IMG/VR virus record: IMGVR_UViG_2744054977_000003
Source: a virus
Taxonomy: Duplodnaviria; Heunggongvirae; Uroviricota; Caudoviricetes
DNA: 6,060 nucleotides
Direction: 5' to 3' (one strand)
Made by a program: the position numbers and the translations under genes. Shown here one piece after another: positions 2,950 to 6,060 of the stretch. The first letter of the stretch is position 1. Every line of letters starts with the position of its first letter. Below the pieces are notes generated by a model that was given only the letters and a program-made list of their open reading frames with translations, was not told the DNA's origin and made no database searches.

Positions 2950-3365
2950 GTTTTGCCCTGAAACTGGCGCGTGAGATGGGGCGACCCGACTGGCGTGCCA
3001 TGCTTGCCGGGATGTCATCCACGGAGTATGCCGACTGGCACCGCTTTTACAGTACCCATTATTTTCATGATGTTCTGCTGGATATGCACTTTTCCGGGCT
3101 GACGTACACCGTGCTCAGCCTGTTTTTCAGCGATCCGGATATGCATCCGCTGGATTTCAGTTTGCTGAACCGGCGTGAGGCTGACGAAGAGCCTGAAGAT
3201 GATGTGCTGATGCAGAAAGCGGCAGGGCTTGCCGGAGGTGTCCGCTTTGGCCCGGACGGGAATGAAGTTATCCCTACTTCCCCGGATGTGGCGGACATGA
3301 CGGAGGATGACGTAATGCTGATGACAGTATCAGAAGGGATCGCAGGAGGAGTCCGGTATGGCTGA
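2527..3365 (+). CDS. T: Tail assembly chaperone gpGT, the fusion made by programmed -1 ribosomal frameshift at G_GGA_AAG (2925-2931). Join is 2527..2931 then 2931..3365, with nt 2931 read twice. Predicted length about 279 aa.
   Basis: The T reading frame is open from the slippery site to TGA 3363-3365 and has no SD-supported start of its own. Reading in the -1 frame from 2925 gives GKVFDGELSFALKLAREMGRPDWRAML..., the lambda gpGT junction sequence. The predicted length agrees with my recollection of lambda gpGT, and the phase relationship is exactly right (G codons start at positions of the form 3k+1, T codons at 3k). Confidence 0.88.
2925..2931 (+). other. Programmed -1 ribosomal frameshift slippery heptamer G_GGA_AAG (recoding signal for gpGT)
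   Basis: Sequence gggaaag at 2925-2931 with GGA (2926-2928) and AAG (2929-2931) as zero-frame codons of G. This is the heptamer known from lambda G-T. Confidence 0.88.
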
Positions 3366-5836
3366 ACCGGTAGGCGATCTGGTCGTTGATTTGAGTCTGG
3401 ATGCGGCCAGATTTGACGAGCAGATGGCCAGAGTCAGGCGTCATTTTTCCGGTACGGAAACTGATGCGAAAAAAACAGCGGCAGTCGTTGAACAGTCGAT
3501 GAACCGGCAGGCGCTGGCTGCACAGAAAGCGGGAATTTCCGTCGGGCAGTATAAAGCCGCCATGCGTATGCTGCCTGCGCAGTTCACCGACGTGGCCACG
3601 CAGCTTGCAGGCGGGCAAAGTCCGTGGCTGATCCTGCTGCAACAGGGGGGTCAGGTGAAGGACTCCTTCGGCGGGATGATCCCCATGTTCCGGGGGCTTG
3701 CCGGTGCGATCACCCTGCCGATGGTGGGGGCCACCTCGCTGGCGGTGGCGACCGGTGCGCTGGCGTATGCCTGGTATCAGGGCAACTCAACCCTGTCCGA
3801 TTTCAACAAAACGCTGGTCCTTTCCGGCAATCAGGCGGGACTGACGGCAGATCGTATGCTGGTCCTGTCCAGAGCCGGGCAGGCGGCAGGGCTGACGTTT
3901 AACCAGACCAGCGAGTCACTGACGGCGCTGGTGAATGCCGGTGTGCGTGGTGGTGAGCAGTTTGAGGCGATCAGCCAGAGTGTGGCGCGTTTCTCCTCTG
4001 CATCCGGCGTGGAGGTGGACAAGGTCGCTGAAGCCTTCGGGAAGCTGACCACAGACCCGACGTCGGGACTGACAGCGATGGCACGTCAGTTCCATAACGT
4101 GACGGCGGAGCAGATTGCGTATGTTGCTCAGTTGCAGCGTTCCGGAGATGAAGCCGGGGCATTGCAGGCGGCGAACGAGGCCGCAACGAAAGGGTTTGAT
4201 GACCAGACCCGCCGCCTGAAAGAGAACATGGGCACGCTGGAGACCTGGGCAGACAGGACAGCACGGGCATTCAAATCCATGTGGGATTCGGTGCTGGATA
4301 TTGGTCGCCCGGACACTGCCCAGGGAATGCTGGAGAAAGCAGAAAAGGCTTTTGATGAGGCGGACAAAAAATGGCAGTGGTATCAGAGCCGGAGCCACCG
4401 GCGCGGTAAAACCTCAGCATTTCTTGCCAATCTCCGGGGAGCATGGGAGGACAGAGCGAATGCGCAACTTGGGCTTTCAGCCGCCACGTTGCAGGCCGAT
4501 CTTGAAAAGGCCAGAGAGATGGCAGCAAAGGACTGGGTCGAGTCTGAGGCATCACGGCTGAAATATACCGAAGAGGCGCAGAAGGCTTACGAACGCCTGC
4601 AGACGCCGCTGGAGAAATATACCGCCCGTCAGGAAGAACTGAATAAGGCACTGAAAGACGGGAAAATCCTGCAGGCAGATTACAACACGCTGATGGCGGC
4701 AGCGAAAAAGGATTATGAAGCGACGCTGAAAAAGCCGAAGCAGTCCGGCGTGAAAGTGTCTGCAGGCGATCGCCAGGAAGACAGTGCTCATGCTGCCCTG
4801 CTGACGCTTCAGGCAGAACTCCGGACGCTGGAGAAGCATGCCGGAGCGAATGAGAAAATCAGCCAGCAGCGCCGGGATTTGTGGAAGGCGGAGAGTCAGT
4901 TCGCTGTACTGGAGGAGGCGGCACAACGTCGCCAGCTGTCCGCACAGGAGAAATCCCTGCTGGCGCATAAAGATGAGACGCTGGAGTACAAACGCCAGCT
5001 GGCTGCACTTGGCGACAAGGTTACGTATCAGGAGCGCCTGAACGCGCTGGCGCAGCAGGCGGATAAATTCGCACAGCAGCAACGGGCAAAACGGGCCGCC
5101 ATTGATGCGAAAAGCCGGGGGCTGACTGACCGGCAGGCAGNNNNNNNNNNNNNNNNNCTGGATGGCAGGCCTGAAGTCCGGCTGGAGTGAGTGGGAAGAG
5201 AGCGCCACGGACAGTATGTCGCAGGTTAAAAGTGCAGCCACGCAGACCTTTGATGGTATTGCGCAGAATATGGCGGCGATGCTGACCGGCAGTGAGCAGA
5301 ACTGGCGCAGCTTCACCCGTTCCGTGCTGTCCATGATGACAGAAATTCTGCTTAAGCAGGCAATGGTGGGGATTGTCGGGAGTATCGGTAGCGCCATTGG
5401 CGGGGCTGTTGGTGGCGGCGCATCCGCATCAGGCGGTACAGCCATTCAGGCAGCTGCGGCGAAATTCCATTTTGCGACCGGAGGATTTACGGGAACCGGC
5501 GGCAAATATGAGCCAGCGGGGATTGTTCACCGTGGTGAATTTGTCTTCACGAAGGAGGCAACCAGCCGGATTGGTGTCGGCAACCTGTACCGCCTGATGC
5601 GGGGCTATGCGGAAGGTGGTTATGTGGGCGGTGCCGGAAGTCCGGCGCAGATGCGGCGGGCTGAAGGCATTAATTTTAATCAGAACAATCACGTGGTGAT
5701 TCAGAACGACGGTACGAATGGTCTGCCAGGTCCACAGATGATGAAGGCAGTGTATGACATGGCCCGCAAGGGTGCCCGTGATGAAATTCAGGCACAGATG
5801 CGCGATGGTGGTCTGTTCTCCGGAGGTGGACGATGA
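3358..5836 (+). CDS. H: Tail tape measure protein gpH (lambda-like), interrupted by a 17-nt N run at 5141-5157 with an apparent frame change across it. Intact gene with an assembly gap or a pseudogene is unresolved.
   Basis: N-terminal piece 3358..5140 (MAEPVGDLVVDLSLDAARFDEQMARVRRHF...GLTDRQA) and C-terminal piece 5159..5836 (WMAGLKSGWSEWEESATDSM...MRDGGLFSGGGR) both match lambda gpH as I recall it. AGGAGGA at 3344-3350 with a 7-nt spacer precedes ATG 3358, which overlaps the T stop. Stop TGA at 5834-5836 overlaps the M start. The upstream piece has codons starting at 3k+1 and the downstream piece at 3k+2. Confidence 0.85.
5141..5157. other. Run of 17 ambiguous bases (N), an assembly gap or masked segment inside gene H
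   Basis: Literal n characters in the sequence. The flanking coding frames are not congruent with a 17-nt spacer. Confidence 0.99.
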
Positions 5837-6060
5837 AGACCTTCCGCTGGAAAGTGAAACCCGGTATGGATGTGGCTTCGGCCCCTTCCGTCAGGAAAGT
5901 GCGCTTTGGTGATGGCTATTCCCAGCGAGCGCCTGCCGGGCTGAATGCCGACCTGAAAACGTACAGCGTGACGCTTTCTGTTCCCCGTTGGGAGGCCACG
6001 GCGCTGGAGTCGTTTCTGGCTGAGCACGGGGGCTGGAAAGCCTTTCTGTGGACGCCGCCT
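5833..6060 (+). CDS. M: Minor tail protein gpM (lambda-like), 5' part only; continues beyond the window end
   Basis: My own translation from ATG 5833: MKTFRWKVKPGMDVASAPSVRKVRFGDGYSQRAPAGLNADLKTYSVTLSVPRWEATALESFLAEHGGWKAFLWTPP, recognised as the lambda gpM N-terminus. GGAGGTGGA at 5822-5830 is upstream. The start overlaps the H stop (ATGA). Absent from the ORF track because there is no stop within the window. Confidence 0.85.
   Translation, partial: MKTFRWKVKPGMDVASAPSVRKVRFGDGYSQRAPAGLNADLKTYSVTLSVPRWEATALESFLAEHGGWKAFLWTPP

Follow-up and report, generated by a model that had tools for sequence, protein, structure and literature searches.

What length of DNA does a short run of undetermined bases stand for when it falls within a well-known phage gene, and is the gene still whole? 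The window analyzed here, a stretch of 6,060 nt, has 17 N at 5141-5157, the sole N run found by a sequence scan. An earlier note on this DNA had taken the interrupted gene to be the tape measure gene H and had suggested that variation in the length of the ruler may be hidden behind the N's.

Reading frames around the N run

The ORF that starts at the ATG at 3358 reaches 5140, a distance of 1783 nt, and thus comprises 594 codons plus one base, ending in ...AKSRGLTDRQA and a lone G. On the 3′ side of the run, a single frame is open, with codons from 5159 (WMAGLKSGWSEW...) to the stop at 5834-5836. The upstream frame (3358) is 3k+1 and the downstream frame (5159) is 3k+2; if H is continuous, the hidden length must therefore be 1 mod 3. 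Since 17 is 2 mod 3, it cannot be the true length, provided that H is intact. This is what the earlier note had argued, and its coordinates, frames, and flanking peptides were all correct. It had also given lambda gpH as 853 aa, in agreement with the lambda annotation, and had stated that the flanks correspond to ...TDRQA and NWMAGLKSGW.... The alignment agrees with the latter, with the first residue (N/S) itself inside the gap; the C at 5158, the third base of codon 634, is the only base of that residue present outside it. An uninterrupted H ORF of ~850 to 860 codons thus cannot be read in the window, given the 17 N and the change of frame, and is obtained once the gap is filled with the 118 nt that the nearest relative has there (see below).

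The features of the window are as follows.

6-416, FI (Pfam)
428-781, FII (Pfam)
793-1371, Z (Pfam)
1368-1763, U (Pfam)
ending at 2511, V (Pfam)
2527-2949, G (Pfam)
2976-3365, + strand, T reading frame, 5′ of H and overlapping its start (Pfam Phage_tail_T)
3358-5140, + strand, 5′ part of H, codons 1-594 and the first base of codon 595; 95-98.6% nt identity to lambdoid phage tape-measure genes
3517-4125, + strand, TMP_2 domain (PF06791) of H, aa 54-256 (Pfam, E=5e-71)
5141-5157, no strand, run of 17 N, read as a gap left by scaffolding or assembly and not sized to the true distance (118 nt in relatives)
5158-5836, + strand, 3′ part of H, the third base of codon 634 and codons 635-859 (WMAGLKSGW...GGLFSGGGR), with the stop at 5834-5836
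5159-5377, + strand, Tape_meas_lam_C domain (PF09718) of H (Pfam, E=1.6e-21 for the downstream fragment)
5833-6060, + strand, start of M, overlapping the H stop and running off the window (Pfam Phage_min_tail)

Pfam assignments and the lambda gene order together describe a lambda-like module, FI-FII-Z-U-V-G/T-H-M. The place of H, after a G/T pair with a -1 slip site and before M, fits the gpH family. Within H, TMP_2 scores 239 bits, the cut-off being 30.2. For Tape_meas_lam_C, which spans aa 633-707 in the complete protein of Escherichia coli ETEC1732, the downstream fragment covers profile positions 3-75 of 76, the first two residues being inside the gap. DNA searches find the region in 145 to 149 lambdoid phage records; of 5426 complete E. 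coli genomes, 4160 contain it. Among the closest known relatives is lambda gpH (853 aa; J02459 10542-13103; PDB 8iyk chain H), to which H, with the gap filled, has 90% aa identity over its full length; the match to 8iyk chain H has E=0. The two share TMP_2, Tape_meas_lam_C, the place between G/T and M, the 118-nt segment, and identical flanks. They differ in that lambda gpH has 853 aa and the closest intact relative of the window's H has 859, and in that the window's H is interrupted by 17 N; the six residues that lambda lacks fall outside the gap, within the divergent replacement cassette of aa 323-396. Judged by its sequence, then, the gene is a homologue of the lambda tape-measure gene H in a lambda-like E. 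coli prophage, and the identification made in the earlier note holds, given the two domains, the identity to gpH, and the 8iyk match.

In lambda, a G-T fusion is produced by -1 frameshifting at a GGGAAAG slip site in G. The window has a lone GGGAAAG, at 2925-2931 near the end of G, in the phase G GGA AAG (X XXY YYZ). Although T is listed as an ORF of its own with an ATG start (2976-3365), its product probably arises as a G-T fusion. Upstream, the mechanically called ORF for V (1741-2511) has 256 aa from the ATG at 1741, and in RefSeq the ETEC1732 homologue begins at the equivalent of 1771 and has 246 aa.

The hidden segment in relatives of the window

Of the complete genomes, that of E. coli ETEC1732 (NZ_CP122823.1, from pig feces) contains the best match, a prophage which differs from the window at 2 of 6043 determined bases (272 and 5114) and is exact over the right flank. 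Where the window has 17 N, this prophage carries 118 nt, CGCGGGAAGCCACAGAACAGCGTCTGAAGGAACAGTATGGCGATAATCCGCTGGCGCTGAATAACGTCATGTCAGAGCAGAAAAAGACCTGGACGGCTGAAGACCAGCTTCGCGGGAG. Because 118 is 1 mod 3, this fill restores the frame, and the window so completed can be read from 3358 through to the stop at 5834-5836 as one ORF of 859 codons. The earlier note had named just this ORF as the one to look for in a closed sequence, and its guess that roughly 100 nt were missing was close: relatives have 118 nt, 101 beyond the 17 N. The filled product is WP_023281238.1 (NZ_CP122823.1 2587798-2590377) in all but one residue: that protein, complete and free of gaps, has N586, and the window has S586.

The 40 restored codons (aa 595-634) read AREATEQRLKEQYGDNPLALNNVMSEQKKTWTAEDQLRGS. 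With its alternative residues, the hidden peptide can be written as (A/E)REATEQRLKEQYGDNPLALNNVMSEQKKTW(T/A)AEDQLRG(S/N). On this comparative evidence, the real content of the gap is most likely 118 nt, or 40 codons, making H one intact gene of 859 codons; at some 6 polymorphic sites (fill positions 1, 2, 14, 23, 93, and 118), it is uncertain which base the fill has. Since the 118 nt of the relatives restore an intact gene, nothing unusual needs to be hidden by the gap.

The length of this segment could be followed in two broader sets of sequences. In IMG/VR, contigs sharing the exact 37-nt left flank of the window gave 118 informative loci, and in 117 of these the distance to the right flank is 118 nt; in the lone exception, an A5 run is longer by one A, and the frame is broken. 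These loci include 27 sequence variants of the segment, all of them differing by point substitutions. Among complete E. coli genomes, a spread sample of 60 was taken together with the best 40 of 3735 matching records, and all informative rows (~99, those with both flanks aligned) show an offset of +101. Phage lambda also has 118 nt between the flanks. The segment is thus invariant in length in the intact comparators, as far as these alignments go, and natural differences in the length of H fall outside it. The suggestion that the gap hides length variation is not supported by this comparison.

Two apparent departures from this length were set aside. In E. coli, a 706-nt class occurs beside the usual 718-nt span, and alignment places the 12-nt indel downstream of the gap, at GGAV (aa 715-718). 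In some phage rows, including that of lambda, an offset of +100 is a BLAST end effect; the H/M junction has no indel, and lambda has 118 nt.

A gap might still conceal a real structural change, whether an in-frame indel, an expansion of repeats in the ruler, or a mobile element. Lambda tolerates small deletions and duplications in H, with a change in tail length (PMC1796659), and the alignment shows that natural indels exist elsewhere in H. The segment, however, is 118 nt in all intact comparators, and there are no repeats in or around it to drive expansion or contraction. An insertion sequence would leave H complete on both sides of its insertion, yet here 118 nt of H are missing, and an insertion sequence is also at odds with a scaffolder estimate of 17 nt. 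We consider a structural change of any of these kinds very unlikely.

Even less probable, in our view, is that the 17 N are literal, the same number of real bases having been called ambiguously or masked, so that a 101-nt deletion shifts the frame, H is a pseudogene, and the prophage is tail defective. Taken literally, 17 is 2 mod 3 and does put H out of frame, and some sequence collections do hold masked stretches that read as N. But a search for the two flanks with any 17 bases between them found no match in genome, viral, or metagenome contig collections, and no such spacing occurs in the E. coli rows and IMG/VR loci examined. As a control, the window itself, N's included, is matched by the same pattern, which makes the empty results elsewhere meaningful. 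Furthermore, the rest of H and all of the neighboring genes are intact, with the 2 mismatches in 6043 bases being to an intact prophage, and N runs of arbitrary length occur inside the same H gene in other scaffolds. Three such public metagenome scaffolds were found: in L132, 19 N take the place of 29 nt; in L131, 10 N stand between flanks that abut; and in L126, the run of N is long.

The public contigs also show small irregularities of other kinds near the segment. Single-base homopolymer differences in the H genes of L125 (~9860), L128 (~1852), L129, and L066 split H into products of 588 aa and 224 aa: a G5 run corresponding to window 5116-5120 is shortened to G4, an A4 run nearby is shortened to A3, and an A5 run within the 118-nt segment is lengthened to A6. 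These splits look like real frameshift alleles but are more probably sequencing errors. In L127 (~6127-6186), a fragment of a major capsid gene encoding 65 aa is fused to the middle of the 118-nt segment, and in L051 a single N at 118 nt past the left flank precedes sequence for the N-terminal part of H. These abrupt joins may be assembly chimeras or deletions.

Origin of the break in the assembly

The window resembles known scaffold gaps in short-read assemblies, in which finished genomes are collinear with both flanks and the count of N (here 17) differs from the true distance (118 nt). The earlier note had considered repeats in this region a plausible cause of the break. Tandem Repeats Finder, run on the complete H gene, placed no tandem repeat within the segment or close to it; the sole tandem repeat in H is an 11-nt array of 2.1 copies ~1.6 kb upstream of the gap. 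Direct repeats in the complete gene amount to imperfect matches of 14 to 18 nt, at chance level. Repeats within H thus find no support as the cause of the break.

Repetition of the gene itself is another matter. A 617-nt stretch around the gap has 8244 copies in 3715 E. coli genomes, with a median of 2 and a maximum of 8 per genome, and the closest relatives of the window, ETEC1732 and ETEC1734, each have two copies. Lambda itself is identical to the window at 199 of 200 nt to the left of the gap and over the first 69 nt to the right. Most likely, the assembly broke here because this part of H is nearly identical between lambdoid prophages, of which E. coli usually carries two or more. Short reads would not have been uniquely placeable in the part of H common to co-resident lambdoid prophages, and the contigs would have ended there; a scaffolder would then have joined two contigs with an imprecise estimate of the distance, leaving 17 N.

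A second lambdoid prophage in the same cell is, by this comparison of genomes, the likelier cause of the break, qualified by the fact that some close relatives, e.g., VG888-46E9, have a single copy of the H segment. As a second copy is not guaranteed, one could instead envision that a local property of the sequence, for instance a strong hairpin or an extreme base composition, caused coverage to drop out. However, the 118 nt have 56% G+C, compared to 57% for the window, and no inverted repeat lies in or adjoining the segment; a local cause appears unlikely, if somewhat less so than the alternatives weighed above. Overall, we think it highly probable that this is a technical scaffold gap with a true length of 118 nt, that H is intact at 859 codons, and that the break most likely arose from reads that could not be placed uniquely.

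The one mismatch to ETEC1732 within H lies close to the break. The G at 5114 (Ser586), 27 nt from the edge of the gap, is shared with lambda and many other H lineages, and ETEC1732 has A (Asn). This G could be a product of natural mosaicism, or it could come from reads of a second prophage copy at the end of a contig.

For annotation, the gap matters in a limited way. Left uncorrected, it leads gene callers to split H into a 610-aa product with X residues and a 224-aa product, and such split calls could mislabel an apparently intact lambdoid prophage as tail defective. The 118-nt fill gives a standard gene. As assembly gaps go, this one is ordinary: the gene is well known, and the hidden sequence can be predicted from relatives. 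Such gaps are already known, and no new biology is involved. The value of the correction is limited to annotation, and it makes no open question testable.

Role of the tape measure and variation elsewhere in H

In lambda, gpH dictates how long the tail tube is and is cleaved near its glycine-rich C-terminal region to give gpH* (~residues 1-710) and a C-terminal fragment (PMC12617516). The protein is described as helical (PMC10721106), and small deletions and duplications in H change tail length (PMC1796659). Given the 90% identity to lambda gpH, the product of this H would be expected to act in the same way, as a tape measure around which the gpV tube polymerizes and whose length sets that of the tail, and to be cleaved later to gpH* and a C-terminal fragment.

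The 40 hidden residues (aa 595-634) lie just before Tape_meas_lam_C, clipping two of its residues, and are within gpH*. From the descriptions of gpH in PMC12617516 and PMC10721106, it is plausible that they belong to the helical, length-determining part of the protein. Where PMC5099701 cites Katsura and Hendrix, the ruler is given as ~0.15 nm per residue; by that measure, about 6 nm of tail would be due to the hidden residues. The tail as a whole would be expected to resemble that of lambda, at about 150 nm, the 6 residues beyond lambda gpH adding no more than ~1 nm. If real, an in-frame indel in the hidden segment would give a measurably shorter or longer tail, by ~0.15 nm for each residue. 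There is very little chance, in our estimation, that the prophage carries a true in-frame indel in this part of the gpH* ruler, or that H is disrupted there and the prophage is tail defective; the comparisons give no sign, and so suggest no reason to suppose, that the hidden residues are absent or altered in the window's genome.

Several other features of H were seen in passing. A perfect 18-nt inverted repeat lies at 5424-5441 and 5585-5602 (CCGCATCAGGCGGTACAG and CTGTACCGCCTGATGCGG), with 143 nt between the arms. A conserved structure formed by these arms is unlikely: in most other alleles, 14 of the 18 positions are complementary and compensatory changes are lacking. As the pairing is not kept across alleles, we claim no structure for it.

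Nearby, in the glycine-rich region and close to where gpH is cleaved to gpH*, is a four-residue indel, GGAV, at 5399-5410 (H aa 715-718). A protein alignment shows it to be present in the window and lambda and absent from the O157:H7 E32511 and USVAST219 alleles. The minority E. coli class that is 12 nt shorter, of the O157:H7 type, is explained by this indel.

A further difference is upstream, at 4324-4545 (H aa 323-396), where a mosaic cassette has almost no identity over ~70 residues to the lambda and O157-type alleles, with near-identical sequence on either side. The cassette is 6 residues longer in the window, and it is in this mosaic block that the ruler's real, natural difference in length resides.
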